From Patescibacteria group bacterium (GTDB lineage Bacteria; Patescibacteriota; Patescibacteriia; UBA9934; GWF2-40-263): a stretch of 64,000 bases of DNA. The position numbers were made by a program, and so were the translations under genes. Positions within the stretch are counted from its first letter, which is position 1; each line of letters opens with the position of its first letter. A model generated the notes under the pieces. It searched no databases. It saw only the letters and a list, made by a program, of their open reading frames with translations, and was not told where the DNA came from. The stretch covers positions 742,716 to 806,715 of the forward strand of contig SCUM01000001.1 of the NCBI GenBank assembly GCA_004297215.1, read 5' to 3'. Below are positions 5,262-30,077 of the stretch, piece after piece.

Positions 5262-5336
5262 GCCCTCATAGCTCAACGGATAGAGCAGATCCGTCCTAAG
5301 GATAAGATGGGGGTTCAATTCCCTCTGGGGGCACCA
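5262..5336 (+). tRNA. tRNA-Arg (anticodon CCU)
   Basis: Cloverleaf folds: acceptor GCCCTCA/TGGGGGC, T-loop GGTTCAATTCC, anticodon loop GTCCTAA, encoded 3' ACCA. Confidence 0.8.
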
Positions 5337-5437: not shown

Positions 5438-5513
5438 GGGCCGATAGCTCAGCTGGTAGAGCGCTGCATTCGCATTGCAGAGGTCTGGGGTTCGATTCCC
5501 CATCGGTCCACCA
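5438..5513 (+). tRNA. tRNA-Ala (anticodon CGC)
   Basis: 76 nt. Acceptor GGGCCGA/TCGGTCC with G3:U70, D-arm TAGCTCAGCTGGTAGAGC, anticodon loop TTCGCAT, T-loop GGTTCGATTCC, CCA encoded. Confidence 0.9.
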
Positions 5514-10800: not shown

Positions 10801-11329
10801 GGCCGGGGCCGTCATCGCGGCCAACGTCCCGCTCGACCCGTCGCAGGCCGCCGCGTTCCACGCTCCGGCCGCCATCGTCCTCAAGGCGCGCCTGCGGACG
10901 ATCCAACACGTCGTTTCCATCTCCGGCATCATCGCCTCGGTCGCGTTCGCGGTGATCAGGCCGGGCGCCCTGACGGTCGGGATGGTGCTCGTGCAGGCGC
11001 TCGTCTACCTTGCCGTGCGCCGCCTCGCGCGCGCGGCCAAGCCCAAGAGCTGGGGGATCGTGTACGACCAGGGGACGGACAAGCCGCTTGGCCGCGTCAT
11101 CGCGCGCGTGTTCGAGCCGCGGTACAATAAGCTCCTTGAGACGGCCGTCACCGACGGCAACGGCCGCTACAACTTCGTGCTCGGGCCCAACGAGTATTAC
11201 GTGGTGTTCGAGCATGAAGGCTACGACAACGTCGAGATACGCCCGGTGGATTTCACCGGACGCAAAGAGGCATCGGACTGGGGCGTCCAGGTCCGCCTGC
11301 CGCCAAAGCTCCTTCCCGCATCCGCGTGA
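7865..11329 (+). CDS. Large multidomain surface protein (subunit-like N-domain, 3x FN3, Cys-rich modules, TM helices alternating with carboxypeptidase-regulatory-like domains)
   Basis: 1154 aa. N-terminal 190 aa homologous to the 34101 protein (ATxTSAxDxM, NHxIxFxTPxGV, ADCS, IGTNAT, SGTFGDxGxIAL). FN3-like repeats with TEYHFRVRSKDAALNE. Pro/Glu-rich linker. Two CG(D/N)GxC...C..DC modules. TM + GRRKRR + CarbopepD_reg-like (TDRGGRYFF..PGRYRL) + TM + second CarbopepD_reg-like (TDGNGRYNF). Confidence 0.8.
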   Translation: MPHIRRNVHRLIAAATILASVLPFLPARAATVTSASDVMTTLETSAAANHVIAFVTPSGVSEGDTVTIEFDADFDTSGLTEDDVDVEDDGVDLTTAADCSGAEQASVILAADTFTITICAGDGGAIAATSEVTVEIGTNATASGTGTSQIDNPSAAGTYYVSVSGTFGDAGSIALPIGGDDTIGVTATVTTGGAGGGGPPAPPAGDTTPPVISNITVSSITATSAIVTWDTDEAADSRVDFGPTVAYENGSVTSGTLVTSHALTLTGLTGSTEYHFRVRSKDAALNERISSDNTFMTTDGVAPLISAIVVTDITTTSARVTWTTDEAADSAVDFGPTVAYGTIVTDGSLVVSHSVVLTGLTENALHHFRVRSKDAALNEAVSGDGTFTTLDDPNPGNVTGLSVTAGDAQNQLSWTNPPDGDLSSIRVIACTNEAPSSPTDPDCTVVSSSLASSFTHTGLSNGTTYFYGVFAVDAVGQFSSGTLGQGTPSVPEEELPPEEPPPEPPPEAPPEPPPEAVPPPALPSGQAGGACGDGICSDLESGASCAVDCGPLPPAAACGNAVCEAGEDSASCAQDCPPGLVPADVLRQDLTFLAGAAGLALPVSDRGSVAVLSRRALVARLSAIHLDRPVDRVELALEGETYLMAPTFSEEEGQGLRAAAVGDDAYETTITTPETSGSHPLAVTVHYGDGTVQAVALLLDVKGDGYAYASVDDAEQRVSGATATLHEVNGGTAVWDGSPYGQSNPLTTGGNGAFAWYAPNGTYAVSVSAAGYAPARTATFSVTDHIINPRVRLALEEEPPLIPPPSAPVAAILDAAAAVNETLEAVRDLPAVQTAADISVPALAVTASLTGVTLAIGFNFVPLLQYLFTAPVLLVGRRKRRAFGIVYNSISKLPVDLATVRLFRLPDELPAEGVPETGRLVQSRVTDRGGRYFFLANPGRYRLAVTKQGFDFPTGYLSSSREDHDFLDLYHGEPIVVSEAGAVIAANVPLDPSQAAAFHAPAAIVLKARLRTIQHVVSISGIIASVAFAVIRPGALTVGMVLVQALVYLAVRRLARAAKPKSWGIVYDQGTDKPLGRVIARVFEPRYNKLLETAVTDGNGRYNFVLGPNEYYVVFEHEGYDNVEIRPVDFTGRKEASDWGVQVRLPPKLLPASA

Positions 11330-11488: not shown

Positions 11489-14400
11489 ATGCTCAAGCGG
11501 TTCAAGGACAACCCGGATCACTTTTTCAGGAGGCTGTTCGCCTTCACGGCCTTGGGTCTGGTGATGGCCGGAGCGGTGTCGTACATGCTTACGGACAGTT
11601 ACCTGTCCGTCTTCGCCGTCTCTCCTCCCAACATCATCCCGTACCAAGGCCGCCTGCTCAACGCCAACGGAGTGCCCGACGCTTCCGCTTCCCGCGACTT
11701 CCAGTTCCGTTTGTACGACTCCCTAGCCGCCGGCACGTGCCTGTGGAGCAACGACGACAGCTCCTGCGCCTCCGACGCCGATTTGGCCGTGACCCTCACC
11801 GACGGGTTGTTCTCCGAGAACCTCGGCGACACCGGGGCCGGATACGCCGCCATTCCGGATTCCGTGTTCGCGGATGATGCCTCCGTGTTCCTCGAGGTGG
11901 AGGTGGAAGGGGAGGTGCTTTCCCCGAGGAAGCAGATCGGAGCCGCGGCGTATGCGTTCAATGCCGACACGCTCGACGGGATGGATTCGGCGAGTTTCGC
12001 CCTCGTGGACGACGCGTTCGTGCAGGACGGCAACAGCTTCGGGGCAACGGCCGTCATCGGCACCAACGACACCGAGGATTTCGCGATCGAGACGGACGGG
12101 ACCACGCGCATGACGGTCCTTTCAAGCGGTGAGGTCGGAATCGGCACGGCCACCCCGCTCGACACCGTCAGCATCCTCGGGACGTCGGGTTCGACCGGCA
12201 TCGGCATCGATGACAGCACCGCGGGAGGGAACACCTATCTCATCCTCAACCACATCAGCGCGTCGGATTCGAGCGAGGAGATCCTCATGAACGGCGACGG
12301 AACGATCGGACTCAACATCACCAACCAGAACTCCGGCACGCTGGGCACCGACCTCACCGACATCCCTTCGAGCGCCAACTTCTACACCAACTCCGGGAAT
12401 GCCGGCGGGCTCATCCTCGCTTCCCAGCACGCCACGGCCCCGATGATCTTCGCCACCGGCGGCATCGCCACGGGCGACGAGCGCATGCGCATCGACTCCG
12501 CCGGAAACGTCGGGATCGGCACGACGACCCCCGGCGAGACGCTGGAAGTATCCGGCACCTCGTACGTCTCCGGCCACGCCGCGATCGGCGCGGACGCGGC
12601 CGTGGACGACGGGAGCCTCCTCTATCCCGGCTCGATCTTCTCCAACACGCTCAACGTGTCCGAGCGGAGCACGGACGCGAGCGTGGACTACGTCGAGGGC
12701 ACCACCAACTACCTCCTGTACGACCCGTCGGCGGACGCCTCGGGCATCTGGGCGATCGCCCTTGATTCCGAGGCGGCCACCGAGGCGACGAACGCCGAGG
12801 ATGTCGGCACCCTGTCCGCCGGGTATTTCAACGCGACCCACAACGGGACCGGCGACATCACGAGCTGGATGTCCGGCATCGAGGCGTACGCCTTCACCAC
12901 CGCGACCGGCGGAAGCTCGGTCGAGAGCATTGCCGGATACTTCTCGCTTAGCCTGTCGGATCCCCGTTCCTCAGGCACCGAGAACAACTACGGCGTGTGG
13001 TCGGCCGTGAGCCGCACCGGCGCCACCGGCGGCACCATCAACACCTACGGCGTGTACGTGGATGACACGGGCGTGGGCAACGCGGGAGCGGGCACTTCCA
13101 CCGCCTACGGCCTGTACCTCGAGGATTTTCCGACCGCCGACGCCCAATATTCCATCTACTCCGAGGGCGGCCAAAGCTACCACGCTGGCAACTTCGGGAT
13201 CGGGGCGACCACGCCCGACGCCGACCTCGACATCGAGGCCGCCGAGGACACGGAGCGCGTGAGGCTCACGGACACGAGCAACGCGGACTCGGTCGGTCTC
13301 TATGTCGGCGACGGCACGGCAGGGCTCGACGGGACCCTCTCGGCCCAGGCGGGGAGCCTGTTCCTCGACGAGGACGGGAAGCTGTGGGTGAACATGGACG
13401 GGGCGACCAACTGGGACCAGGTGGCGACCACGGCCGGAGGCGCCCTGGACCTCGACGGGGCGTACGACAACGATTCAGACAAGAAGATGGCCGTGGACAA
13501 CGCCTCGGGCCTCGAGTTCGAGAGCTCCACGGCCGGCAACGTGTTCGTGGACCTGCAAAGCACCGGCGACTTCGTGATCCAGTCGGTTGGCACCGCCTTC
13601 GCCACCTTCAACGACTCGGGGAACGTCCTTTTCGAGAACTCGCTCACGGTCGGTTCCAGCTCCGCCGACGTCGTCCTGTTCAACGCCGACGTGGACAGCC
13701 ACTTCATCCCCGACGACGACGACACCTACGACCTGGGCGCCGACGCCCAGCGCTGGAGGGACCTCTACCTTGGGGCCGCGACCCTCCACGTCGGTTCCCT
13801 TATCGGGGACGAGGGAACCATCTCCTATGACACCGGGGCGAACGCGCTCGTCGTGAACGAGGGTGGGGCCGACACCGACTTCCGCATCGAAGGCGACACG
13901 GAGGCGAACCTCCTCTTCCTCGACGCCGGCAACGGCCGCGTGGGGATTGGTACGGCTAGCCCGACCGCGCGCGTACACGCGACCCAATCGACGGACGGCG
14001 GCGGAGGATACGTCTTCGAGAATTCGAACGCGGGAGCGTCCGCCTTTTCCGAGGTTTCCGTCGTGTCCGATGGCGCGACGGGTTCGTGGAGGTCGTTCGG
14101 CACAGGAAATACGAACCTCGGCTTTGATTCCATTTCATTAGCCGATTCCGTGGCCATCGGCGCGAATACGGATGCGACCCGCATGTTCGTGGCCACCTTC
14201 GGCACCGCACCGCTCCTCATCGGCACCAATCTCAACACGAGCGGGACGCCACCGGGGATATTCATCGACACGTCCAACAACGTTGGGATCTTCGACGAGA
14301 CCCCGTCCGCCAAACTCGACGTAGGAGGGACCTTTGCCGTGCAAGGGAATTCGACCCTCGGCAACGCCTCGGGCGACACAGTCACCTCAAACGCCGCCGC

Positions 14401-17400
14401 CTGGACGTTCGCGAATGACACCACTGTCGCGCTTTCGGGCGGCGTGAACGGCCTCAACTTCGACTCGAACACCCTTTCCATCGACGCCGCCAACAACCGC
14501 ATCGGCATCGGCACCTCGACGCCATCGCACCTCGTGGACATCAGCGCCGGCACCTCCACCGGCTTCTGGCCGCTGCACATCGCCGCGACGGTCACGGACG
14601 GGTTCGCGGGGCTGCGCGCCGACATCACGAGTTCGGACACGATCGGGAACAACCAGCTGGCCGGCCAGTTCGTCCTCGCCGCCGGCGCCACCGGGGCAGG
14701 GTATTACACGGCCCTGGACGTGGAGAACCTGGCGGCCGGCACCGGGAGCGACCTCAAGCTCGATACGTCGTCGAACGCCTCCCTCGGCAACACCGGCCTC
14801 AGCAGCCTCGCCATCGCGACCACCACGGGCCTCAACGTCGGCTCTTACATGGAGGCCGCCAACGGCGCGACGAGCGTGGGCGGGGTGGGGAAGTCCATCA
14901 CGGCCAAGGCCTCGGGGACCAACATCGGCGTCCTGGGCGTGGGCCGCAACACGAGCGTGACGTCCCCCATCGAGATCGGCGGGTACTTCGGCCTGTTCAA
15001 CTCCACCCCCACCTTCGACGCCTCCTCCGGCCTCATCGCGAGCAACGGGTCGACCACCAACAACATCTTCCTCGCCCGCGACAACAACACGACGGTGTTT
15101 TCCATCGTGGACGGGGGGAGCGTGGGCATCGGCGACGCCACCCCCGACGCCCTGCTCGACGTGGCCGGCAGTTTCCAGTTCGACGGCGACGCGACCTTTG
15201 GCGACGCGGCCACGGACAACGTGGTGTTCACGGCCGACGTGAACAGCAACATCCTCCCCAACACCGATGACACGTACACGCTCGGCGACGCGGACCAGCG
15301 CTGGGCGGATATCTTCCTCGGCCCGGCCTCCATCCATATCGGCACCTCGGCCACGAACGAGGGCGTGATCAGCTACGCGGCCGGAACCTCGCTCGATTTC
15401 GGCACGGATTCGACCACGAACGCCGACATCGCCTTTTTCACCGACGACCTCTACCTCGACAAGTCCACGGGGCGCGTGGGTGTCGGCACCGCGGCGCCCG
15501 GTTACCTCCTCGACGTGAACGGCGCCATCCGCGCCGGCACGCCGGGCACGGATGGCCAGATGCGCGTCTACTCCGAGCAGGGAGCCACCGACTACGAGGT
15601 CGTGTTCGATCCCAACGCTGCGATGACCCAGAACGTGACGTATACCCTCCCAGCCAATGACGGCGACTCCGGCCAGTTCCTCACGAGCGACGGCGCAGGC
15701 GCGCTTTCCTGGACCACCTCGGCCGGCTCCGGCGACATCACGGCCGTCGGTTCAATGACGAGCGGCGACGCGTTCGCGGATTCCTCGGCCGATGACGACT
15801 GGCTCGGTCTCGGCGTGGCCGCCGGACGCATCGAGTTCGACGACCTCGCCACCGACGAGGTGAACGTCCTTGGGGCGCGCGTCGGCGTCGGCACCTCCGC
15901 GCCGGACGCGTTGGTTGACGTGGAAGGGAGCGTGAACGGCGAGGTCGCCACTTATGCCACGAATACGAACGCGGGCACGGCGGCCTTCGCCGCCGTCAGC
16001 CTCGTGAACGACCAAGGCAATTCGTTCCGATCCTCGGTGTACATGACCAGCAGCACGTACGTGGGTTCCGGTGAAGGCGCGAACGCGCTCGTGTTGCAAA
16101 ACGGCGTGACCACGGGGCCGATCCGCTTCATGCAAGGGACCACTTCCCGCATGCTCATCGACGGCTCCGGCGACCTCTCCTGGAGCGGGAACGCGACCTT
16201 CGGCGATACCTCGGGGGACGCGATTACCGTGAATGCCGCCACTTGGACGTTCGCGAACGACACCGCGGTGGCGCTCTCGGGCGGCGAGAACGGCCTCAAT
16301 TTCGACAGCAACACCCTTTCCATCGACGCGACGAACGACCGCGTGGGCATCGGGACCGCGTCCCCGGCCGCGATGTTCCATGCGACCCGGTCGGCTCCGG
16401 CCGCCGGCGCCGAGGCCTGGGCCGAAAACACGAGCGCGACCGGCTATGCCGCCATGCTCATCGTGAATGACGCCGGGTCCGGGAGCCGCAGCGGGTTGCA
16501 ATTCGCGGGTTCGGGCTATGCCGACACCATCGTCGGGAACAACGACCTCGCCCTCACGCAGGCCACGGCCAACGACCTCCATTTCGCCACCAGCAACACG
16601 CGGCGCGTGACGCTCGACGCGTCCGGGAACCTGGGGATCGGCGACGCCACCCCCGACTACCTCCTCGACGTGGCCGGCACTCTCGGCGTGGACGGCAGCG
16701 TCACCCTCGGCGACGCGGTCACCGACAACCTCACCGTGGGCGCGGCCATCCAAGGGACGAGCGCGCTCGTGTTCGACGGCTCCACGGATGACGCTAACGA
16801 GACCACCTTCTCCATCACCAACCCCACGGCTGACAATACGATTACCTTCCAAAACGGCACGGGCACCGTGGCGTTCCTTTCTGACATCCCGGCTTCCGGC
16901 GACATCACGGCCGTCGGCTCCATGACCTCGGGCGACGCCTTCGCCGACGCCACGGCCGACGACGACTGGCTGGGCCTCGGCGCCGCGGCCGGCCGCATCG
17001 AGTTCGATGACCAGGCGACCGACGAGGTGAACATCCTATCGTCCCTCGTCGGCATCGGGACCTCGACCCCGTCGGCCATGCTTTCCGTGGGCGCCAGCTC
17101 GCAATTCCAGGTGGATAGCTCTGGAAACATCACGACCTCCGGCACTTTGGCGGTGAACGGCGGGATCATCACGGCGACCGGTTCGCTCGATATCAACTCC
17201 CTTACGACGACCGCGCTTACGCTCGACTCGGGCACGACCGGCGACGTGAATCTCGGGACAGGCGCAAACGCGAAGGCGGTCTTCGTGGGCAACAGCACCG
17301 GTGCGACGAACCTTACGTTCAATGTCGGCACCGGCGGCATCAACTTCGGCGACAACGCGAATACGAAGACGATCGACATCGGCGGGGTCACCAGCAGCGG

Positions 17401-19933
17401 CACGGACACGATCAATCTCGCGACGAACGGGACCGCCGCGGACGTCATCGCGGTCGGCAACAGCAACGCCTCCACCACGCTTGCGCTTACGGGCGGCAAC
17501 GACTGGAGCATCAGCACGGCCGGCCTCATCACTACCGCGGGCGACGTGGCGGTGAACGGCGGGGACATCACCTCCACTGGCGCGATCACCATCACCCCGG
17601 CCTCGGGATCCAACGTTGACGTGGGACTTGCGAGCACCGGTGACTTTAACGTGAATGTCAGTGGAAGCCCGGTGTTCGTCGTCTCCGAAACGGGAGTCGT
17701 CGTCGCAGACTCGAACATTTTCGTCGGCAATGCGAGTTCGTCCAACGACGATTTCCTCTATTTCGACGGCGGGACGACCGAGTCCATCCGTTGGGATGAA
17801 ACAGGGAGCGAATTCGAGGTTTCCGACGACTGGAATATCTTGGGCAACTGCCTTGAGACGGGCGTGGCCTGCGACCTGGCGGAGACGTTCTTCGCGGATG
17901 CCGGGGAGGCGCTTGAGGCGTACGACGTGGTGGTGAGCGATGCCTCTGGAACGAAGAAGGTGAAGAAGTCGTCGATGGCGTATGATTCCGGGCTCATGGG
18001 CGCGGTGTCGCTGCAGCCGGCGATCCTCATGGAAGGCAGCTACGTGGTGGTGGGCAACGACGATGCCGTGGTGGATCCGGAGCGTCCGGCCGTGGTGCTC
18101 TCCGGCGTGGTGCGCGTGAAGGTGAGCGAGGAGAACGGGGTGCCGGCCATCGGCGACATGCTCGCCACCTCAACGGTCGCGGGGCACGCCATGAAGGCCT
18201 CGCAGCCGGGCATGGCGCTTGGCCGCATGGTGGGCGGGTATACCGCGGTCAGTCCCGGCATTGCCACGGCGCTCGTGGACGTGAAGGTGGGCTGGCACTC
18301 CGGCGGCGTGATCGCCACCGACGGCACCATGGCCACGATCAATGACGATGTCGCGTTCACGGCCACTGGCACCGCCGATGGCATTACCCAAGGTTTCGAC
18401 TCCTTCGGCCTCTCCCTTCGCGGCTCGGGCTGGGACGGCGCTGCCGCCCAGGAGCGCGCCATGAAGCTCGTGACCGACGTGACGGACGCCTCCACCTACA
18501 AGCTGTCCATCCGCAACCAGTCCGACGCCGAGGTCGCCTACATCACCGACGACGGGGTGATGAGCGTGGCTTCCGACCTGGTGGTGGGAGGAAAGCTGTA
18601 CCCCTCGGCCCTGGGAGTCGCCCAGACGGACAAGTACGTCTATTACGGAGGCTCCGGCGACGACTACATGCGCACCAACGCCTCGGGCTGGGGGACCGGT
18701 AGCTACGACTTTGCGGAAATGTTCCCCTCAAGCCTGCCTCTCGAACCTGGTGAGGTGGTGGCGTTCGATACGGTTTCCGAACAGGTGAAACGCGCCTCGG
18801 GCGAGGACCGCGCGCGCCTCGCGGGCATCGTGTCCACCAAGCCCGGGTTCGTGGCCGGCAACGTGAAGGCGGGCGACCACCCGATCGCGCTCGCGGGCCG
18901 GGTGCCCACCAAGGTGTCCCTCGAGAACGGCGACATCGCCGTGGGCGACGCGCTTACCGTATCCGAAACGCAGCCAGGCTACGCCATGAAAGCCACCGAG
19001 GCCGGCATGATCATCGGCTACGCGCTTGAACCGTTTGATGGCAGTGGGTCGGTTGATGGCAGTGGGCAGTTGGCAGTTGGCAGTGGGGAAGCGATCATCG
19101 TGTTCGTTCATCTTGGCTACTGGACCGACGGAAGTCAGCCCATGGCCGGCACGGACAACGCGGCGTCCGGCTCGGGCACCGGGAGCCTGTCGGCGCTCAA
19201 CATGACCGGCAACATCTACATGCAGGGGAACCAGATCCTGAACGTCGGCGCGATTGCCGGATTGGGCGGCATCTGGAGCGTGGACGGGGAAGGGACGTTC
19301 CGCACGGAGGCGACCTACAAGACGGTCATCACCAGCTACCAGAACGAGCAGGTGGAAACGATCGCCGTCACGAGTCCGGACGTGCAGATTACGCTTCTCG
19401 GGACCGCGGAACTCGTGAACGGGGAAGCGACCGTCTCGTTCGAGTCCGTCAATCCGTCGTTCAACGACGTCACGTCCACCACGGCCCCGGTGCGCGTGCT
19501 CGTGACACCCAACGGCCCGGTGTCGCTCTATATCGTGAGCAAGGACCACAACGGGTTCACGGTCCGTCAGGTCGGCCCTTCGACAAGCTCAGGGTCTTCG
19601 ACGGATTCGAACGTGACGTTCGACTGGATGGTGAGCGCGTTCAGGAAGGATTATGAAGTGGTTGAGTCGTTGAGTGGTGGAGTGGTTGAGGAAACGGCTC
19701 CAGCCGAGGAGACGGCTCCTTCGACGGAACCGACTGTCGAAAACCCGGCCTCGACGGACACGACGGCCACGGAACCAGCTCCGTCAGAACCCGTCCCAGA
19801 ATCGCTTCCCTCTGAACCTGTCCCAGAGTCCGCTCCCTCGGAAGAACTTCCCCCTGCCGATCCAGCTCCAGCTCCTGAAGAGCCGGCTCCTCCTGCGGAG
19901 GAACCCCCGGCTCCCACGGAACCGGCGCCTTGA
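11489..19933 (+). CDS. Giant surface protein 1 (N-terminal signal anchor, conserved head domain, GIGT-type repeats, two copies of a conserved C-terminal module, Pro/Glu-rich tail)
   Basis: 2814 aa. TM anchor FAFTALGLVMAGAVSYML. Head IIPYQGRLLNANGVPD..FRLYDS..CLWSN..LSPRKQIGAAAYA. Many xVGIGTxxP repeats. C-terminal modules with DxAExF..STKPGF..ALAGRVPTKVSLENGDIAVGD..PGYAMKA..GYALEP. PE-rich end. Confidence 0.85.
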   Translation: MLKRFKDNPDHFFRRLFAFTALGLVMAGAVSYMLTDSYLSVFAVSPPNIIPYQGRLLNANGVPDASASRDFQFRLYDSLAAGTCLWSNDDSSCASDADLAVTLTDGLFSENLGDTGAGYAAIPDSVFADDASVFLEVEVEGEVLSPRKQIGAAAYAFNADTLDGMDSASFALVDDAFVQDGNSFGATAVIGTNDTEDFAIETDGTTRMTVLSSGEVGIGTATPLDTVSILGTSGSTGIGIDDSTAGGNTYLILNHISASDSSEEILMNGDGTIGLNITNQNSGTLGTDLTDIPSSANFYTNSGNAGGLILASQHATAPMIFATGGIATGDERMRIDSAGNVGIGTTTPGETLEVSGTSYVSGHAAIGADAAVDDGSLLYPGSIFSNTLNVSERSTDASVDYVEGTTNYLLYDPSADASGIWAIALDSEAATEATNAEDVGTLSAGYFNATHNGTGDITSWMSGIEAYAFTTATGGSSVESIAGYFSLSLSDPRSSGTENNYGVWSAVSRTGATGGTINTYGVYVDDTGVGNAGAGTSTAYGLYLEDFPTADAQYSIYSEGGQSYHAGNFGIGATTPDADLDIEAAEDTERVRLTDTSNADSVGLYVGDGTAGLDGTLSAQAGSLFLDEDGKLWVNMDGATNWDQVATTAGGALDLDGAYDNDSDKKMAVDNASGLEFESSTAGNVFVDLQSTGDFVIQSVGTAFATFNDSGNVLFENSLTVGSSSADVVLFNADVDSHFIPDDDDTYDLGADAQRWRDLYLGAATLHVGSLIGDEGTISYDTGANALVVNEGGADTDFRIEGDTEANLLFLDAGNGRVGIGTASPTARVHATQSTDGGGGYVFENSNAGASAFSEVSVVSDGATGSWRSFGTGNTNLGFDSISLADSVAIGANTDATRMFVATFGTAPLLIGTNLNTSGTPPGIFIDTSNNVGIFDETPSAKLDVGGTFAVQGNSTLGNASGDTVTSNAAAWTFANDTTVALSGGVNGLNFDSNTLSIDAANNRIGIGTSTPSHLVDISAGTSTGFWPLHIAATVTDGFAGLRADITSSDTIGNNQLAGQFVLAAGATGAGYYTALDVENLAAGTGSDLKLDTSSNASLGNTGLSSLAIATTTGLNVGSYMEAANGATSVGGVGKSITAKASGTNIGVLGVGRNTSVTSPIEIGGYFGLFNSTPTFDASSGLIASNGSTTNNIFLARDNNTTVFSIVDGGSVGIGDATPDALLDVAGSFQFDGDATFGDAATDNVVFTADVNSNILPNTDDTYTLGDADQRWADIFLGPASIHIGTSATNEGVISYAAGTSLDFGTDSTTNADIAFFTDDLYLDKSTGRVGVGTAAPGYLLDVNGAIRAGTPGTDGQMRVYSEQGATDYEVVFDPNAAMTQNVTYTLPANDGDSGQFLTSDGAGALSWTTSAGSGDITAVGSMTSGDAFADSSADDDWLGLGVAAGRIEFDDLATDEVNVLGARVGVGTSAPDALVDVEGSVNGEVATYATNTNAGTAAFAAVSLVNDQGNSFRSSVYMTSSTYVGSGEGANALVLQNGVTTGPIRFMQGTTSRMLIDGSGDLSWSGNATFGDTSGDAITVNAATWTFANDTAVALSGGENGLNFDSNTLSIDATNDRVGIGTASPAAMFHATRSAPAAGAEAWAENTSATGYAAMLIVNDAGSGSRSGLQFAGSGYADTIVGNNDLALTQATANDLHFATSNTRRVTLDASGNLGIGDATPDYLLDVAGTLGVDGSVTLGDAVTDNLTVGAAIQGTSALVFDGSTDDANETTFSITNPTADNTITFQNGTGTVAFLSDIPASGDITAVGSMTSGDAFADATADDDWLGLGAAAGRIEFDDQATDEVNILSSLVGIGTSTPSAMLSVGASSQFQVDSSGNITTSGTLAVNGGIITATGSLDINSLTTTALTLDSGTTGDVNLGTGANAKAVFVGNSTGATNLTFNVGTGGINFGDNANTKTIDIGGVTSSGTDTINLATNGTAADVIAVGNSNASTTLALTGGNDWSISTAGLITTAGDVAVNGGDITSTGAITITPASGSNVDVGLASTGDFNVNVSGSPVFVVSETGVVVADSNIFVGNASSSNDDFLYFDGGTTESIRWDETGSEFEVSDDWNILGNCLETGVACDLAETFFADAGEALEAYDVVVSDASGTKKVKKSSMAYDSGLMGAVSLQPAILMEGSYVVVGNDDAVVDPERPAVVLSGVVRVKVSEENGVPAIGDMLATSTVAGHAMKASQPGMALGRMVGGYTAVSPGIATALVDVKVGWHSGGVIATDGTMATINDDVAFTATGTADGITQGFDSFGLSLRGSGWDGAAAQERAMKLVTDVTDASTYKLSIRNQSDAEVAYITDDGVMSVASDLVVGGKLYPSALGVAQTDKYVYYGGSGDDYMRTNASGWGTGSYDFAEMFPSSLPLEPGEVVAFDTVSEQVKRASGEDRARLAGIVSTKPGFVAGNVKAGDHPIALAGRVPTKVSLENGDIAVGDALTVSETQPGYAMKATEAGMIIGYALEPFDGSGSVDGSGQLAVGSGEAIIVFVHLGYWTDGSQPMAGTDNAASGSGTGSLSALNMTGNIYMQGNQILNVGAIAGLGGIWSVDGEGTFRTEATYKTVITSYQNEQVETIAVTSPDVQITLLGTAELVNGEATVSFESVNPSFNDVTSTTAPVRVLVTPNGPVSLYIVSKDHNGFTVRQVGPSTSSGSSTDSNVTFDWMVSAFRKDYEVVESLSGGVVEETAPAEETAPSTEPTVENPASTDTTATEPAPSEPVPESLPSEPVPESAPSEELPPADPAPAPEEPAPPAEEPPAPTEPAP

Positions 19934-20106: not shown

Positions 20107-23100
20107 ATGGATCTCCTCGAACGCAAGGACCACCCGCTTTGCCGCCTGATGCAGGGGGTGGTTGCGGTCGCGTTGGTGATCACCGGAGGGATCGCCTCGA
20201 CCTGGGTGATGTTCGAGGCTCTCTCCGTCTTTGCCGTCTCTCCCCCGAATATCATCTCGTACCAGGGGAGGCTCCTCAACGCCAACGGCGTGCCGGACGC
20301 TTCCGCTTCCCGCGACTTCCAGTTCCGCTTGTACGACTCGCTGGCCGCCGGCACCTGCCTGTGGAGCAATGACGACAGCTCCTGCGCCTCCGACGCCGAT
20401 TTGGCCGTGACGCTCACCGACGGATTATTCTCCGAGAACCTGGGCGACACCGGGGCCGGGTACGCCGCCATCCCGGATTCCGTGTTCGCCGATGACGCGA
20501 GCGTGTTCCTCGAGGTGGAGGTGGAAGGGGAGGTGCTTTCGCCGCGCAAGCAGATTGGCGCCGCGGCGTACGCCATGAACGCGGATACGCTGGATGGGAT
20601 CAATTCCACGAGTTTCTTCGTCCAAAATGGCAACTCCCTCGGCGCCGCGGCCGTGCTCGGGACCAATGACGGCTTCGGACTTGAGCTGGAGACGGGCGGG
20701 ACGACGCGACTGACGTTAGGGACAAGCGGCGCGATTACCGTTCCCCTTGCCGGCTCTTTCGTATTCGATGACGATGCGACCGACGGGTTGGATGACGACA
20801 TGACCCTCGAAGTCGCCGCGTCGCTGGCGTACCCCGGATTCGACGTCACCGTCATGCATCCGTCCTTCGGATTGCTTGAACTCGTGGATCCCGTGAATAG
20901 CGCCCCGGGAATCGCGTTGCACGGCGACCTCCCAGCATACGCCATCAACGTGGATAACCCTGGAGGGGCGGGGACGGCCTTCTTTCCCATGTCGTTCTTT
21001 CGCGAGGGCGCTTCAAGTTCTCCCTTCTTCTCGATGCAGACCTATCCGGATGACGACGGTTGGGCCATCTACGGACCGAGCGTCGCTGATCCCGGGGTCA
21101 TTCAGATCCTCGAAGCCGGCACGGTGAACGCCGGTGCCTATGCCGCTCGTAGCGACGCTTCGGCGATTCCGATCCTGTGCGCGTCCACGCGGGTCGAGGA
21201 GACCGCCGCGAACCTGGTCCAGGAATCATGCTTCATGGCCGACGGTTCTCTCGACCTCGGGCTCGCGCTCGCGGGCACGGACACGACCGTGGCCCAAGGC
21301 GGCATCGAGCGGTCCAGCGGATCGGACGAGACCTTCGCCTTCGCGAACCAGGGCGCGGGAGTCCTTTCTCTGACCGCGGATGGCACGGTGGACGTCTCCG
21401 GCCACGCCGCCATCGGCGCGGACGCGCTGATTGATGACGGAGGCCTCCTCTATCCCGGCTCCACCTTCTCCAACACGCTCAACGTGTCCGAGCGGAGCAC
21501 GGACGCGAGCGTGGACTACGTCGAGGGCACCACCAACTACCTCCTGTACGACCCGTCGGCGGACGCCTCAGGCATCTGGGCGATCGCCCTCGATTCCGAG
21601 GCGGCCACCGAGGCGACGAACGCCGAGGACGTCGGCACCCTGTCGGCCGGGTATTTCAACGCGACCCACAACGGGACAGGCGACATCACGAGCTGGATGT
21701 CCGGCATCGAGGCGTACGTCTACACCACTGCGACCGGCGGGAGTTCGATCTCGAACATCGGCGGGTATTTCTCGGTCACCGCCCAGGACCCGCGCGCCAC
21801 AGGCACCGAAGACAACTACGGCGTGTGGTCGGCCGTGCACCGCACCGGCGCCACGGGCGGCACCATCAACACGTATGGCATGTACGTGGACAACGACGGC
21901 GTGGACGCGGCCGGGGCCGGTACCTCCACCCTCTACGGACTGTTCCTCGAGAGCATGACCGGCGCGGACACCAACTATTCCATCTACTCCGCGGGCGGCC
22001 AGAGCTACCATGCCGGCAACTTCGGGATCGGGGCGACCACTCCGGACGCCGACCTCGACATCGAGGCCGCGGAGGACACGGAGCGCGTGAGGCTCACCGA
22101 CTCGAGCAACGCCGACTCCGTGGGATTGTACGTGGGCGACGGCACCGCCGGGCTCGACGGCACCCTTTCGGCCCAGGCCGGCTCCCTCTTCCTCGACGAG
22201 GACGGGAAGCTGTGGGTGAACATGGACGGGGCGACCAACTGGGACCAGGTGGCCACCACGGCCGGCGGGGGGACGGACCTCGACGGGGTGTACGACAACG
22301 ATTCGGACAAGAAGATGGCCGTGGACAACGCCTCGGGCCTCGAGTTCGAGAGCACCACCGCGGGCAACGTGTTCGTGGACCTGCAAAGCTCGGGCGACTT
22401 CGTGATCCAGTCGGTTGGCACCGCCTTCGCCACCTTCAACGACTCCGGCAACGTCAGTTTCGAGAACTCGCTCACGGTCGGTTCGAGCTCCGCCGACGTG
22501 GTGCTGTTCAACGCCGACGTGGACAGCCATTTTCTCCCCGACGACGACGACACCTACGACCTGGGCGCCGACGCCCAGCGCTGGAGGGACCTCTACCTCG
22601 GGGCCGCGACCTTGCACGTCGGTTCTCTTATCGGCGACGAAGGGACGCTCTCGTATGACAGCACGCCAAACGACTTCAATTTCGCAAATGGCGGCGCCAC
22701 GCGGATGACCATCCAAAGCGACGGCGACGTGGGAATCGGGGATTCGATGACCTCGCCCACCGCCCAGCTGCACATCAAGCAGACCGCCGCCGAGGACGCC
22801 CTGCGCGTGGACGACGAGGCGGCCGGCACCACCTATTTCGTGGTGGACGACGGCGGCAACGTGGGCATCGGGGTCACCTCCGGCCCGTCCTCCACGCTGC
22901 ACGTGGTGGGCGATACGCGCATCGGCGCCACGGATTACGTCACCATGGCGCAGGACGGCGGCGGGTTCTACGTGGAGCAGATCGGGAGTTCCGACGCGCT
23001 GCGCCCGATTCGCCTGCAGTCGCGCAACGCGGCGACCCAGTACAGCCAGTTCTTCGTGGACCCGGTGAACGGGTTCCAGTTCCTCATCAACGCCACCGGC

Positions 23101-26100
23101 GCCAACAACAACGTGGGCATCGCGGATTCCACGCCGGACAACCTGCTCGACATCCTCTCCGGTTCCGACGCCGCCCTCGCGCTTACCTCGACGGGCACGG
23201 ACACGGACCCGCTCATCAAGTTCGAGCTTGCCGACGGCACGCCTACCTTCACCTTGGGCGTGGACGATTCGGATTCGGACAAGTTCAAGATCTCCACCAC
23301 GGCGCTTGGCACGAGCGACCGCCTGGTCATCGACTCGTCCGGCTTCGTGGGCATTGGCACCTCGACGCCGGACGCGGCGTTCGACGTGGAAGCGGCCGTG
23401 GACGCCAACGGGGCGAATGTCCTGTTCGAAGCCAACGACTCGGGGGTGTCCGGCAGCTACTTCCGCATCGCCGACGGCACCGAGGCGGACACGCATTTCG
23501 TCCCCTACATCATGACGAAGGGGATCGGCACCGGGGCGGCGGACCGCGCCGGGCTGATCATCGACGCGCAGCCGGGCGAGGACGGGAGCGACGACGTCGC
23601 GGTGATCGTCGACGCGCATCTTTCCGGCGCGGCGCTCACGAGCGCGCACCTGTTCGAGGTGCGAAACGACGCGACGCCGCTGCTGCGCGTCGCAGCCAAC
23701 GGCAACCTCGTCTCGTTCGGTTCCGTCGGCATCGGGACGGGAACGCCCGGGGCCAGCCTCGACGTGGATCCCGCCAACGTCGTGGGCGGCGGCACCTCCG
23801 AGCAACCCTCGATCCTCGGATCGAACCAGGTGATTGCGCTTGCCGACGGGACGACCCGGGCGAATCAGCGCCAGTTCAAGTTCCTCGCGCCGACCCTGAA
23901 CGGGGTCGCGGGCGGAGGCACCGAAACGGTCACGGACGCGGCCACCTTCTACGTCTCCGACGCCCCGTCGGGTTCGGACATCACCTTCACCAACGGCCCG
24001 TACGCCCTGTGGGTGGATGCCGGGACGGCGCGGTTCGACGGGGACGCCATCGTGGGCGGCAGCACGTCGATCACGGAGACCCTCGCGAACGCCGGATTCT
24101 CGATTGGCGGCGACGACCTGTTCGTGGCCGGCACCGCGGGCGTGGAAGGGAACGTGTACACGGACGGGTCGTTCATCGCGGGCGCCACCCTCACGCTCGC
24201 GGATTCCGGCATCACCGAGAGCGGCGCGTTCACCTTCACCTCCCAGCTCGCCGCCGGCGGCACCACCTCTTCCGCCTACAACCTGGTCACGAGCAACGAC
24301 CTCGGTTCCGCCGACGAAGTGCTCCAGATCGGTGACTCGACAGGCACCTTCGCGACCGTCCTTGGGAACGGCAACGTCGGGATTGGAGAAGTCGACCCGG
24401 CCACGATCCTACACGTTTCCGGCACCCAGGCTCGCGTCACCATCGAGGACACGGGAAAGGGGACGGGGCCGGCCGTGCTTGGGCACGATTCCGGCATGTT
24501 GTTTCTCGAGAACAACGGCATACGCGTCATCTCCATCAACGACTCCGGCGGTTCCACGGGATTCGGCGACCAGAGCCCGAACGCCATCGTGGAAGTCGAC
24601 CAGGCCGGCGGCAGCGTCGACCCATTCCTCATCTCGAGCAACAACGGCGTGGACGGCGACCTGTTCAACGTGCAGGACGGAGGCGCCGTGGGCGTGGGCG
24701 ACGTTTCTCCGGACGCCAGGTTCGACATTGACGACGGCGCCGCGACCGGGACGATCGTGGGGGTGCTCTCGAACGCCGGGACGCAGGCCGGATCCTTGAT
24801 CGGCCTTTCGCTCGACTTCGACTCGTCGCTCGCCGGCGCCGCCAACCTGGACTTCACCGGCGTGAGGCTCCTCACCCCCAATCTCACGCAATCCACCGCG
24901 GATACCACCGACTACCTCGGGTACGACCTGGCGGCTGGCGCCATCACCCAGGACACGCTTGCCGGGACGATCAATTGGACCGGCGCGCGCATCGCCATGC
25001 CCGTGCAGGTGCAGACCACCGGCATCGTGAACACGAGCGGGCTCACGGTCACGGACAACGGGTCGAGCAACAGCGGGGTGAAGCGCGGATTGTTCGTGGA
25101 TTTCAGCGGCATCCAAAGCGGCGGGACCCTGGTGGGCCTTGACGTGGACAGCATCACAACCGGCGGCGGCAACGGGCTTGGCGTGCGCATCGGGTCCGGG
25201 TTCGACACGGATCTCCAGTTTGTGAACGCCGCCGCCGTCATCCGCGTTCCCAACGCGGGCACGCTCGACTTCCAGGACGCCTCGGAGAACTCCCTCATGC
25301 TGCTTACGGACGCGGGAAGCACGAGCACCCTCGACGTGAACGGCTCCATCCGCGCCGGGACGCCTGGCACGGACGGCCAGTTCCGCCTCTACTCCGAGCA
25401 GGGAGCCACGGACTACGAGGTCGCGTTCAACCCGCATGCGGCCATGACGCAGGCCACCGCCTACACCCTTCCGGCGGACGACGGCGGATCCGGCCAATTG
25501 CTCACCACCGACGGGTCCGGCGCGCTCTCTTGGTCAACCGCCGCTTCGGGCGACATCACGGCCGTGGGCTCCATGACCTCCGGCGACGCCTTCGCGGACT
25601 CCACGGCCGACGACGACTGGCTCGGCCTTGGCGCCAGCGCCGGCCGCATCGAGTTCGATGACCAGGCCACGGACGAGGTGAACATCCTCGGCGCGAACGT
25701 CGGCATTGGCACCTCGACGCCTGGTTCAACCATCGACGCCACGTCCCCGGCGACCCTCACCACGGCCTATCAGCTCCTGGCCGATTCGGTGACGGACGGG
25801 ACGGGATTGGAACTGTCCCTCGACAGCCTGAACGAGGGTTACGGCCTGCTCGTAACGAGCACGGCAGATGCGGATTACGGGTCTGACCTGGCCGGATTCC
25901 AGCAGTTCGCCGTGTCCACGGGTACCGCGACCATGGACGGGAACGTGGAGAGGATCGTTCAGAACCTGGACTCCAGTACCACGGGGACCCTCACGGTGAG
26001 CGGCAACGCGATGCGGATCCAGCGCGCGGTGAACGCCAACAGCGGCACGACCCTGGACGCGACGGGCGCGGTCATGCGTATCAGCGACCAGACCGGCGCC

Positions 26101-27555
26101 GGGACAGGGACCCTCAACTCGAGCTCGGACGTGCTTTCCCTCACCCAATTCATCACGACGAACAGCGGCGACGCGTTGGGCATCCTGCACCAGGGCACAG
26201 GCATCGGGGCCCACATCACCATGAGCACCGTGAGCGCCCCCGCATCCGGTTCCGTGGGCAACCAGGCCTTGGTGCTCGACACCAATGAGACGCAGAGCAA
26301 CGACGACATGTTCATCATCCGCTCCGACGCCGACGGCACTCCGGACACGGAGTTCATCTTCGAGGCCGACGGGGATGCCGTGGCCGACGGCAGCTTCACC
26401 GGCGGCGGGGCCGACTACGCCGAGTACTACCGTGTTTCCGACCAAGGGATTGAGGCCGGCGACGTCGTCTGCCTCGACCAGGAGAACCCTGGCGACGTCA
26501 CTCGCTGCTCCGCTTCCGCCCCTGTCCCCACCGGCGTCATCTCCACCAAGCCCGGGTTCCTCGCCAATGGCCAGGGCAGGGACGTGGCGGCCGACCCCTC
26601 GTTCAAGCCGGTCGGCCTGATGGGTCAGGTCCCGACGAAGGTCAGCCTTGAGAACGGCGACATCGCGGTCGGCGACCCCGTCGTCGCTTCCGTGACCGCT
26701 CCGGGACGCGCCATGAAGGCCGTCGAGGCCGGCCAGATCGTCGGCTACGCGCTCGAGCCCCATACCAGCCAGTCTCCTGACGCGGAGATCCTCGTATACG
26801 TGCGCCCTGGATACCACGCGGCACTCTCCTCCCAGACCGCCGCCGGCACCGACAACCGGGCTTCGGAGATCCCGTCCTCGGGCCTCACCGCGCTCAACAT
26901 GAGCGGCAACATCTACATGGCGGGCAACGGAATCCTCGACGTTGGCGCGATTGAGGGCATCGGCGCGCGCTGGTCGGTCGACGCCGATGGGAAATTCGCA
27001 ACCCAGGCTTCCTACGACGTGGTCATCAAGAGCTACCAGGACGAGGACGTGACCGTGCACGCGGTGCTCGGGCGCGAACACAAGGTGACGCTCGACGGCA
27101 CAGCGACCCTCGAGAACGGGGTCGCGACGGTCGCGTTCGAGACGGTCGACCCGCTCTTCAACGACATCACGTCGACGACGGCCGACATCCGCGTGTCCGT
27201 GACCCCCAACGGCCCCGCCTACCTCTATGTCGTCTCGAAGGACCACAACGGGTTCACGGTGCAGCAGTTGAACGGCAGCGACTCGGGCATCACCTTCGAC
27301 TGGTTCGTGAGCGCGTATCGGAAGGACTATGAGCCGGAGGTGATTGAGGTTGTTGAGGTGACGGAGGAGATGCCGGTCGAGGAATCGGTCCCGACCGAAG
27401 GACCCGTGCCGGAACCGGTCGTCGAAGAACCTGCACCTATCCAGGAGACGGCTCCCGTGACCGACCCGGCACCGACCGAGCCTGCTTCGACGGATTCGCC
27501 ACTGGTTGAAGAACCGGCGCCAGAACCGCCCCCGACAGATGAAACCCCGACATAG
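20107..27555 (+). CDS. Giant surface protein 2 (tandem paralog of giant 1)
   Basis: 2482 aa. The first ~135 aa after the TM and a ~1.3-kb internal block are near-identical to giant 1 at DNA level (20237-20610 vs 11617-11990; 21385-22650 vs 12560-13830). One C-terminal conserved module (26400-26780), conserved C-terminal domain, PE-rich tail. Confidence 0.85.
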   Translation: MDLLERKDHPLCRLMQGVVAVALVITGGIASTWVMFEALSVFAVSPPNIISYQGRLLNANGVPDASASRDFQFRLYDSLAAGTCLWSNDDSSCASDADLAVTLTDGLFSENLGDTGAGYAAIPDSVFADDASVFLEVEVEGEVLSPRKQIGAAAYAMNADTLDGINSTSFFVQNGNSLGAAAVLGTNDGFGLELETGGTTRLTLGTSGAITVPLAGSFVFDDDATDGLDDDMTLEVAASLAYPGFDVTVMHPSFGLLELVDPVNSAPGIALHGDLPAYAINVDNPGGAGTAFFPMSFFREGASSSPFFSMQTYPDDDGWAIYGPSVADPGVIQILEAGTVNAGAYAARSDASAIPILCASTRVEETAANLVQESCFMADGSLDLGLALAGTDTTVAQGGIERSSGSDETFAFANQGAGVLSLTADGTVDVSGHAAIGADALIDDGGLLYPGSTFSNTLNVSERSTDASVDYVEGTTNYLLYDPSADASGIWAIALDSEAATEATNAEDVGTLSAGYFNATHNGTGDITSWMSGIEAYVYTTATGGSSISNIGGYFSVTAQDPRATGTEDNYGVWSAVHRTGATGGTINTYGMYVDNDGVDAAGAGTSTLYGLFLESMTGADTNYSIYSAGGQSYHAGNFGIGATTPDADLDIEAAEDTERVRLTDSSNADSVGLYVGDGTAGLDGTLSAQAGSLFLDEDGKLWVNMDGATNWDQVATTAGGGTDLDGVYDNDSDKKMAVDNASGLEFESTTAGNVFVDLQSSGDFVIQSVGTAFATFNDSGNVSFENSLTVGSSSADVVLFNADVDSHFLPDDDDTYDLGADAQRWRDLYLGAATLHVGSLIGDEGTLSYDSTPNDFNFANGGATRMTIQSDGDVGIGDSMTSPTAQLHIKQTAAEDALRVDDEAAGTTYFVVDDGGNVGIGVTSGPSSTLHVVGDTRIGATDYVTMAQDGGGFYVEQIGSSDALRPIRLQSRNAATQYSQFFVDPVNGFQFLINATGANNNVGIADSTPDNLLDILSGSDAALALTSTGTDTDPLIKFELADGTPTFTLGVDDSDSDKFKISTTALGTSDRLVIDSSGFVGIGTSTPDAAFDVEAAVDANGANVLFEANDSGVSGSYFRIADGTEADTHFVPYIMTKGIGTGAADRAGLIIDAQPGEDGSDDVAVIVDAHLSGAALTSAHLFEVRNDATPLLRVAANGNLVSFGSVGIGTGTPGASLDVDPANVVGGGTSEQPSILGSNQVIALADGTTRANQRQFKFLAPTLNGVAGGGTETVTDAATFYVSDAPSGSDITFTNGPYALWVDAGTARFDGDAIVGGSTSITETLANAGFSIGGDDLFVAGTAGVEGNVYTDGSFIAGATLTLADSGITESGAFTFTSQLAAGGTTSSAYNLVTSNDLGSADEVLQIGDSTGTFATVLGNGNVGIGEVDPATILHVSGTQARVTIEDTGKGTGPAVLGHDSGMLFLENNGIRVISINDSGGSTGFGDQSPNAIVEVDQAGGSVDPFLISSNNGVDGDLFNVQDGGAVGVGDVSPDARFDIDDGAATGTIVGVLSNAGTQAGSLIGLSLDFDSSLAGAANLDFTGVRLLTPNLTQSTADTTDYLGYDLAAGAITQDTLAGTINWTGARIAMPVQVQTTGIVNTSGLTVTDNGSSNSGVKRGLFVDFSGIQSGGTLVGLDVDSITTGGGNGLGVRIGSGFDTDLQFVNAAAVIRVPNAGTLDFQDASENSLMLLTDAGSTSTLDVNGSIRAGTPGTDGQFRLYSEQGATDYEVAFNPHAAMTQATAYTLPADDGGSGQLLTTDGSGALSWSTAASGDITAVGSMTSGDAFADSTADDDWLGLGASAGRIEFDDQATDEVNILGANVGIGTSTPGSTIDATSPATLTTAYQLLADSVTDGTGLELSLDSLNEGYGLLVTSTADADYGSDLAGFQQFAVSTGTATMDGNVERIVQNLDSSTTGTLTVSGNAMRIQRAVNANSGTTLDATGAVMRISDQTGAGTGTLNSSSDVLSLTQFITTNSGDALGILHQGTGIGAHITMSTVSAPASGSVGNQALVLDTNETQSNDDMFIIRSDADGTPDTEFIFEADGDAVADGSFTGGGADYAEYYRVSDQGIEAGDVVCLDQENPGDVTRCSASAPVPTGVISTKPGFLANGQGRDVAADPSFKPVGLMGQVPTKVSLENGDIAVGDPVVASVTAPGRAMKAVEAGQIVGYALEPHTSQSPDAEILVYVRPGYHAALSSQTAAGTDNRASEIPSSGLTALNMSGNIYMAGNGILDVGAIEGIGARWSVDADGKFATQASYDVVIKSYQDEDVTVHAVLGREHKVTLDGTATLENGVATVAFETVDPLFNDITSTTADIRVSVTPNGPAYLYVVSKDHNGFTVQQLNGSDSGITFDWFVSAYRKDYEPEVIEVVEVTEEMPVEESVPTEGPVPEPVVEEPAPIQETAPVTDPAPTEPASTDSPLVEEPAPEPPPTDETPT

Positions 27556-30001: not shown

Positions 30002-30077
30002 TGGTGGACCCTAACGGGATCGAACCGTTGACCTCTTCCATGCCATGGAAGCGCTCTACCAGCTGAGCTAAGGGCCC
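30002..30077 (-). tRNA. tRNA-Ala (anticodon GGC)
   Basis: Reverse complement GGGCCCTTAGCTCAGCTGGTAGAGCGCTTCCATGGCATGGAAGAGGTCAACGGTTCGATCCCGTTAGGGTCCACCA. G3:U70, anticodon loop ATGGCAT, CCA encoded. Confidence 0.9.

Follow-up and report, generated by a model that had tools for sequence, protein, structure and literature searches.

A compact relative of phi29 gp12 domain D4 in the C-terminal cassettes of three giant proteins from a Patescibacteria group bacterium

Patescibacteria, members of the candidate phyla radiation (CPR), are ultra-small episymbionts, and to our knowledge their attachment to host cells is largely unknown. A stretch of 64,000 nucleotides (nt) from a Patescibacteria group bacterium (GenBank assembly GCA_004297215.1, contig SCUM01000001.1, positions 742,716 to 806,715), hereafter the window, to whose own numbering all positions below refer, encodes three giant proteins that had no database annotation of any kind. 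We found that each of them ends in a phage-type autochaperone cassette, whose repeated module is a compact, insertion-less relative of domain D4 of the phage phi29 protein gp12 (Pfam family PF11962, Peptidase_G2) with a tandem beta-tulip fold. We consider it probable, at roughly 60%, that the cassette is a trimerisation autochaperone, or intramolecular chaperone, that cleaves itself immediately before the Asp of a D-x-A-E motif.

Domain D4 of gp12 comprises two beta-tulip domains in succession and is an autochaperone required for trimerisation (bioRxiv 10.1101/216911), which is cut off once folded (PMC3357383). That preprint credits Xiang et al. 2009 with having noted that the sequence of D4 resembles those of a capsid protein of PBCV-1 and of 'some bacterial adhesion proteins' (bioRxiv 10.1101/216911). 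In principle the present finding is no surprise, since adhesins of bacteria carrying this domain had been anticipated in 2009; its use is that a large family of completely dark giants gets annotated and their maturation becomes directly testable. In the literature searched, neither the compact form nor its tandem duplication was described, nor was a cassette of module A, inter-module segment, module B, sandwich and tail on Patescibacteria giants, which is not proof of absence.

Module copies and their relation to phi29 gp12 D4

The three giants are encoded by the following open reading frames (ORFs):

11489-19933, + strand: giant 1, 2814 amino acids (aa), with a signal-peptide-like N-terminus, a long repetitive fibre region and the C-terminal cassette
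20107-27555, + strand: giant 2, 2482 aa
36342-49241, + strand: giant 3, 4299 aa counted from a GTG start

The true start of giant 3 may be a downstream Met. The sequence of giant 2 is that of NCBI TAK04252.1, a hypothetical protein from a Patescibacteria group bacterium metagenome-assembled genome (MAG). A full-length scan of the three proteins, 9595 aa together, returned zero credible Pfam domains; the sole matches were of the Extensin low-complexity type, together with sub-threshold chance matches to Pox_A11 and EBNA2_N.

A sequence-only reading of the window had described five copies of a C-terminal module of unknown family, two in giant 1, one in giant 2 and two in giant 3. All five were recovered, each 20-100 nt from the positions first given, and are about 135-140 aa long:

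17870-18307, + strand: g1A, module A of giant 1, aa 2128-2273, a compact G2-like tandem beta-tulip; predicted scissile bond Cys2128/Asp2129 (Asp codon 17873-17875, + strand), with Glu2132
18704-19132, + strand: g1B, module B of giant 1, aa 2406-2548; predicted scissile bond Tyr2406/Asp2407 (Asp codon 18707-18709, + strand), in the near-invariant context W-x-T-G-S-Y-D-F-A-E-M-F-P-S
26410-26826, + strand: g2, the single module of giant 2, aa 2102-2240, with the canonical pre-site context ADGSFTGGGA/DYAE; predicted scissile bond Ala2102/Asp2103 (Asp codon 26413-26415, + strand)
47271-47684, + strand: g3A, module A of giant 3, aa 3644-3781, motif FDLAE; predicted scissile bond Phe3644/Asp3645 (Asp codon 47274-47276, + strand)
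48042-48452, + strand: g3B, module B of giant 3, aa 3901-4037, motif EGYAE, with Gly3902 (codon 48045-48047)

The copies share 37-75% pairwise identity, and BLASTP expectation values of 2e-15 (g1A against g2) and 3e-12 (g1A against g1B) indicate that they are truly homologous and not chance motifs. The motif string first proposed for them needs a correction for g3B, where E-G-Y-A-E has Gly for Asp and the Asp is therefore lost, a replacement that is rare in module B (3 of 116 relatives). The most degenerate copy overall is g1A, which has GAVSLQPA in place of GVVSTKPG.

Taken singly, the window copies gave no match to PF11962 at E<=1 (the gathering score of the family is 25 bits), because they lack the insertion of about 50-80 aa that is found in the canonical domain. 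The only match of any window copy to a PHROG was that of g3A to PHROG 19602, 'tail fiber protein' (E 3.3e-8), and a profile built from the five window copies alone found nothing significant in the PDB. The link to gp12 emerged only once homologues joined the profile. A search with the C-terminus of giant 2 yielded 50 proteins, four of them annotated with PF11962, 'Peptidase_G2, IMC autoproteolytic cleavage domain'; one of these, P0050, is a canonical member (144.8 bits) whose pre-site context, ADGSFTGGGADYAE, is common to giant 2. A 20-module profile matched the released gp12 fragment 3GQH with an E of 8.6e-6, and the motif Asp aligned on residue 1 of the 3GQH chain, that is on Asp692, which directly follows Ser691 in full-length gp12 (6QZ9). 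The same profile matched the 'chaperon domain D4' of the Dpo31 tailspike and chain cU of 8H2I, a large virion protein of 1343 aa. A control profile of 42 sequences that included no canonical member found 3GQH in the same register (E 0.014) and aligned with P0050 at an hhalign probability of 97%, over the first 65 columns only.

The family threshold itself was reached by relatives. Nine whole-cassette orthologues scored above the PF11962 gathering score, at 25.2-37.1 bits, the match falling on module A in some (P0266) and on module B in others (P0236), and homologues of a short form, described below, scored 22-31 bits. All of these matches span only positions 5-105 or so of the 228 in the profile; in the alignment with canonical P0050, an insertion of about 80 aa (profile positions of about 105-180) is missing in all window copies. 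An Asp-x-x-Glu at the N-terminal boundary, as in PF11962, is present in four of the five window copies. The module is therefore no longer of unknown family: by profile and by fold it is distantly related to Peptidase_G2, sharing the motif and the fold and passing the threshold via orthologues only. A search for conserved Ser/Asp/Glu triads had been suggested; the diagnostic feature proved instead to be the D-x-x-E on the first strand, aligned with Asp692 and Glu695 of gp12.

Structural comparison of the C-terminus, which had been proposed along with the profile search, agreed with this placement. In the AlphaFold2 model of giant 2 aa 2086-2412, the module (model residues 17-152) has a predicted local distance difference test score (pLDDT) above 90 throughout, and in the model of giant 1 module A (model residues of about 21-165) the score is mostly above 90. 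The top PDB match of the giant 2 model in Foldseek was premature phi29 gp12, 3SUC (E 1.2e-4), and against the isolated D4 fragment 3GQH the target template-modelling score (TMt) was 0.56; the next PDB matches were beta-tulip capsid decoration proteins. In a library of viral structures, models of a 'preneck appendage protein' came first (E 3e-10, 144 columns, root-mean-square deviation (rmsd) 2.9 A, TMt 0.66), followed by many phage tail-fibre proteins with about 150 aligned columns and 23-29% identity. As modelled, the module has the tandem beta-tulip fold that characterises D4.

The suggestion that the C-termini are like an autoprocessing domain or intramolecular chaperone outside the S74 class is supported by this homology, although self-cleavage itself is unproven. 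Peptidase S74 had been set aside on the grounds that its signature was lacking, and this was borne out, as no giant has a profile match to PF13884 and the Ser-Lys motif SDxxxK does not occur in their translations.

Layout and conservation of the cassette

Beyond the modules, the cassette comprises a segment between modules A and B, a terminal domain of about 155 aa and a Glu/Pro-rich tail of 73-93 aa. The inter-module segment, conserved over 86 aa in giants 1 and 3, had gone unmentioned in the sequence-only reading; the terminal domain reported there was located in all three giants, those of giants 1 and 3 being 57-61% identical to that of giant 2.

18395-18652, + strand: inter-module beta segment of giant 1, aa 2303-2388, FDSFGLSLRGSGWDG...KLYPS...YVYYGG
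47733-47990, + strand: inter-module segment of giant 3, aa 3798-3883
19196-19657, + strand: terminal domain of giant 1, aa 2570-2723; a low-confidence LNMTGNIYM...GAI part, then a small beta-sandwich
26893-27333, + strand: terminal domain of giant 2, aa 2263-2409
48516-48959, + strand: terminal domain of giant 3, aa 4059-4206
19658-19930, + strand: acidic Pro/Glu-rich low-complexity tail of giant 1, 91 aa
27334-27552, + strand: acidic Pro/Glu-rich tail of giant 2, 73 aa
48960-49238, + strand: acidic Pro/Glu-rich tail of giant 3, 93 aa, with a weak Extensin_1 low-complexity match

The inter-module segment of giant 1 is predicted as beta strands in the AlphaFold model. No convincing relative of the segment was found, and its sole signal was a sub-threshold match of residues 529-608 of the orthologue P0326 to DUF7265 (PF23927; E 0.0055, 17.3 bits against a cut-off of 24.6). 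The linker between the last module and the terminal domain (19133-19195, 26827-26892 and 48453-48515) contains a conserved motif, (P/A)-G-T-(D/S/Q/E)-N-x-(A/T)-S, that is also found in orthologues.

The last 80 or so residues of the terminal domain are confidently modelled as a small beta-sandwich. Its best match is to the last 70 or so residues of the receptor-binding fragment of the cyanophage Pam1 tailspike, 7EEA (Foldseek E 7e-4, 26-27% identity, rmsd 2.3 A), where the hidden Markov model comparison is marginal (E 0.37). Weaker matches are to the fibre tips of pyocin and AP22, to the C-terminus of the Bdellovibrio fibre Bd2439 and to H-type lectins, the last of these being weak in Foldseek (3WMP, 2CCV and 4Q56, E 0.06-0.3, TMt 0.34-0.46); the C-termini in the window have no Pfam match to the H-type lectin family PF09458. 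The first half of the domain (LNMSGNIYM...GAI...W) is of low confidence in monomer models. A match of its LNMSGNIYMxGNxIxxVGxIxG segment to Roco/Rab leucine-rich repeat (LRR) proteins (E 6e-5) was the sum of sub-threshold repeat matches with per-domain E values of at least 5.9, and was dismissed as an artefact of that summing over what is a single LRR-like turn.

A profile of the terminal domain was searched against 1.84 billion representative proteins and gave 4954 matches at E<=1e-3, 156 of them at E<=1e-30. Among the best 150 matches the domain almost always lies about 70-270 aa from the C-terminus of a protein of 1000-4500 aa. Exactly two modules and one terminal domain are present in 116 of the 147 best representatives, with fixed spacing: module A, about 119 aa, module B, about 20 aa, the terminal domain and the tail. 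The single-module layout of giant 2 is a minority form (17 of 147). The tail is nearly always present in these relatives, with a median length of about 95 aa, and is rich in E, P, V, D, T and S (22% E and 13% P). Named relatives with the cassette come from Ca. Uhrbacteria, Parcubacteria and 'Patescibacteria group'. Beyond this group, hundreds of secreted proteins of 150-500 aa finish in a short module of the same kind; those with a named source include proteins of Acidobacteria, KSB1 and other lineages. Nothing follows the module in 152 of 169 homologues, where it forms the extreme C-terminus, and none of 120 module homologues among the matches listed carries a Pfam annotation.

Mean pairwise identity was calculated by region over 105 cassette proteins:

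300 aa upstream of module A: 18-19%, unalignable
Module A: 40%
Inter-module segment: 46%
Module B: 61%
Terminal domain: 45%
Tail: 26%

Conservation thus sets in at the D-x-A-E of module A, and a boundary this sharp is the pattern that a conserved chaperone behind a variable tip would leave. Despite the 40% overall identity of module A, both the Asp and the Glu of its D-x-A-E are present in 115 of 115 sequences, and its only near-invariant polar residues are Asp18, Glu21, Asp104 and Ser109 (positions in the 20-sequence profile). In module B, within the string given above for g1B, the Asp is present in 109 of 116 sequences and the Glu in 114. Eight proteins have a degenerate B site, and all eight have an intact A site; giant 3 conforms, with FDLAE at its A site and EGYAE at its B site. 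Some short-form relatives have Asp in place of Glu (ADYAD), a swap that would be tolerable for an acid catalyst.

Proposed maturation and alternative explanations

The N-terminus of each giant (11489-11700, 20107-20320 and 36342-36640) has a single hydrophobic segment, followed by SVFA/VS or AVA/TL, and after this signal-peptidase-like site all three proteins have a conserved domain starting I-x-YQG(R/K)L. The hydrophobic segment is probably a Sec signal peptide, by which the giants would be exported. After export, three C-terminal cassettes may associate through their beta-tulip modules, as the homology to gp12 D4 suggests, and the cassette trimer would bring the chains into register with one another and seed the folding of the long, highly variable fibre. 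Once the trimer had formed, the bond just before the invariant Asp (X/D-x-A-E) would be cut by the Asp/Glu pair. A cut at module A would free the whole cassette and expose the hypervariable region as the mature tip. Module A would be the site that is essential, and module B would add a further one that can at times be dispensed with. Release is probably independent of adenosine triphosphate (ATP), because the modules lack the canonical insertion and folding would take place outside the cytoplasm.

Several observations weigh against a self-cleaving autochaperone. Single-sequence searches with the C-termini in the window gave no Pfam, NCBIfam or PDB match to the modules. Only the N-terminal tulip can be aligned with the canonical family, and the stretch of about 50-80 aa between the two domain halves is absent from the window modules in alignments with both P0050 and gp12. 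The same fold occurs in capsid decoration proteins that do not cleave. Unlike gp12, the giants have 250-690 further residues beyond the module, conserved and including the beta-sandwich, and to shed a sandwich that resembles the retained tip domain of the Pam1 tailspike and lectins seems wasteful. The presence of two modules is left unaccounted for. We infer cleavage at X/D-x-A-E from sequence comparison, and the residues in gp12 that correspond to the motif, Asp692 and Glu695, are reportedly catalytic according to Xiang et al. 2009 and MEROPS family G2. A literature search for the catalytic residues of gp12 gave nothing, and the roles assigned to the two here draw also on where the PDB chain begins.

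In a bolder reading, the cassette could be a hitherto undescribed two-stage maturation device of CPR surface fibres, in which two G2-type sites fire sequentially, outside the cell and free of ATP, and the C-terminal piece has a job of its own. That piece, consisting of module B, the lectin-like sandwich and the acidic tail, would be shed or transiently retained, and could be a removable cap that keeps the variable adhesive tip covered up to the moment of contact with the host, or else a trimeric lectin that is secreted. We regard such a device as unlikely.

A permanent, non-cleaving tip, in which the tulip modules are trimer clamps, the sandwich is a retained carbohydrate-binding or adhesive knob and the D-x-A-E is structural, is possible but doubtful. 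It would fit the fold matches to many tulip decoration proteins that are not processed (T1, FCWL1, Pam3, XM1, BB1, TW1 and phi29 gp8.5), the weak Pfam matches to Phage_cement_2 and XM1_gp53, and the resemblance of the terminal domain to the Pam1 tailspike and, more weakly, to H-type lectins; uncleaved C-terminal autochaperones also exist, for example in the P22 tailspike (PMC3357383). However, a receptor-binding tip should vary, and nothing else in these otherwise unalignable proteins is as conserved as the cassette. The best matches in both sequence and fold are to a processing domain, whose cleavage site falls exactly in register with the motif. The motif's Asp and Glu do not vary over a background of 40% identity, Glu-to-Asp swaps occur in relatives, and about 90% of homologues have nothing beyond the module.

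Pro-rich C-terminal spacers are typical of Gram-positive wall-associated proteins, and the C-terminus with its acidic Pro-rich tail might accordingly be a cell-envelope anchor that fixes the fibre to the wall or S-layer, leaving the N-terminus distal. The tail is present in nearly all relatives and the cassette is conserved, as would be expected of an anchor, but the tail itself is poorly conserved (26% identity), the giants lack a hydrophobic segment at the C-terminus and have neither a sortase motif nor a known domain for wall binding, and the module is homologous to a phage chaperone that is released. The only hydrophobic segment is N-terminal and is followed by a conserved domain, the layout of an N-terminally attached fibre (PMC10769870), and we consider an anchor very unlikely. 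Still less credible is that the giants are the remnant of an integrated phage tail-fibre gene, and so prophage structural proteins rather than proteins of the cell surface. In structure, every close relative is a tail-spike or fibre protein of a phage, and there is the match to a tail-fibre PHROG. A prophage origin is rejected because of the gene context: the neighbours are housekeeping genes and three transfer RNAs (tRNAs), and no phage genes were found. The three paralogues, of 2482-4299 aa, lie in one chromosomal region of an 842-kb contig, a tblastn search with the giant 2 module as a single sequence found no match in 50,697 GenBank phage records, and hundreds of similar giants occur in Patescibacteria MAGs.

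On the preferred reading of a self-cleaving autochaperone, C-terminal trimer nucleation would be the first concrete handle on how these giants fold. The mature protein would probably end just before module A, which would make the hypervariable region upstream the functional tip. The family can be recognised by a profile that finds hundreds of members, and the G2 intramolecular-chaperone family gains a compact and probably ATP-independent form. Present Pfam and NCBIfam models overlook this form, which is widespread among the fibre proteins that bacteria secrete, Acidobacteria and KSB1 included.

Genomic setting and comparison with known systems

The N-terminal thirds of giants 1 and 2 contain blocks of 90-93% nucleotide identity (11603-13434 against 20221-22262), within which the domain after the signal segment is identical, and which point to recent duplication or gene conversion between the paralogues. 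A repeat of about 80 aa, GDITAVGSMTSGDAFADxxADDDWLGLGxxAGRIEFDDxxxDEVN, occurs in all three giants. In giant 3, at least 10 tandem Cys-containing repeats of 153 nt (51 aa), of the form DSTGxVGxYTSIAVxADGxPVISYYDxxNxDLKVxKCGNAxCSSGNxTTT, occupy 45228-47054 (aa 2920-3610 or so), immediately before module A, and may form a propeller-like or disulfide-stapled tip region.

The genes around the giants are housekeeping genes, encoding PolA, DNA polymerase III delta (holA), YchF, ribosomal protein S6, SSB, a class II aminoacyl-tRNA synthetase and FtsK. Upstream of giant 1, an ORF at 7865-11329 (1154 aa) has fn3, PhoD_N-like and CarboxypepD_reg domains, and downstream of giant 2, an ORF at 27576-29969 (797 aa) encodes a tetratricopeptide repeat (TPR) protein; both neighbours are likely to be envelope-associated. 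Two ORFs, 49243-49908 (221 aa) and 49910-52483 (857 aa), follow directly on the giant 3 stop codon and on one another; neither has a Pfam match. Their co-transcription is probable, and they could encode accessory factors. They are followed by an ORF at 52487-53437 with a weak CarboxypepD_reg domain. The tRNA-Arg and tRNA-Ala(CGC) genes sit in a low-GC stretch at 4-6 kb, the rest of the window being about 65% GC.

15728-15978: first copy of the 80-aa repeat in giant 1
16895-17145: second copy of the 80-aa repeat in giant 1
25546-25796: copy of the 80-aa repeat in giant 2
43134-43384: copy of the 80-aa repeat in giant 3
5262-5336, + strand: tRNA-Arg(CCT)
5438-5513, + strand: tRNA-Ala(CGC)
30002-30077, - strand: tRNA-Ala(GGC)

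Among known systems, domain D4 of phi29 gp12 (3GQH, 3GQK and 3SUC) is like the module of the giants in its tandem beta-tulip, in its D-x-A-E on the first strand in the register Ser691/Asp692...Glu695, in the GV(I/V)S and (V/A)GL(L/A)GQ/R(V/I)xV(K/R) motifs and in its place behind a long fibre or spike, which in the giants is a putative trimer. It differs in length, the module of the giants having about 135 aa against 163-230, and in that the module is tandemly duplicated and has a beta-sandwich and an acidic tail after it. The giants are moreover predicted secreted proteins of 2500-4300 aa on a cellular CPR chromosome, so that any release step would proceed without cytoplasmic ATP.

The mosaic adhesive trimeric (MAT) fibres of Bdellovibrio bacteriovorus have a signal peptide, directly after it a conserved domain of about 130 aa, a variable phage-like fibre and a C-terminal S74 chaperone for which self-cleavage was shown (PMC10769870). 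They are cellular surface fibres, not phage ones, whose N-to-C order is by inspection analogous to that of the giants (PMC10769870), and they likewise occur as many paralogues, each genome being that of an organism living on other bacteria. In contrast to the giants, MAT fibres are of about 600-1200 aa and their chaperone is a Peptidase S74 (SDxxxK), of another fold and catalytic type. Peptidase S74 in general, as in endosialidase K1F, T5 pb1 and the MyRF ICA, acts at the C-terminus as a chaperone of trimerisation and, once folding is done, removes itself (PMC4690869, PMC8326128), as proposed here, but the giants have neither a sequence or Pfam match to it nor its Ser-Lys dyad motif, and their fold is different.

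The beta-tulip decoration and cement proteins (lambda gpD, P74-26 gp87, TW1, XM1 gp53 and the base of phi29 gp8.5) share the fold and the trimer habit (bioRxiv 10.1101/216911) and give weak profile matches to the module of the giants, whereas they are small stand-alone proteins that have no DxAE site and are not processed. Lastly, the C-terminal domain of the Pam1 tailspike (7EEA) superposes with the terminal sandwich of the giants, as do, weakly, H-type lectins (2CCV and 3WMP); in the giants, unlike in Pam1, this domain lies downstream of a putative cleavage site.

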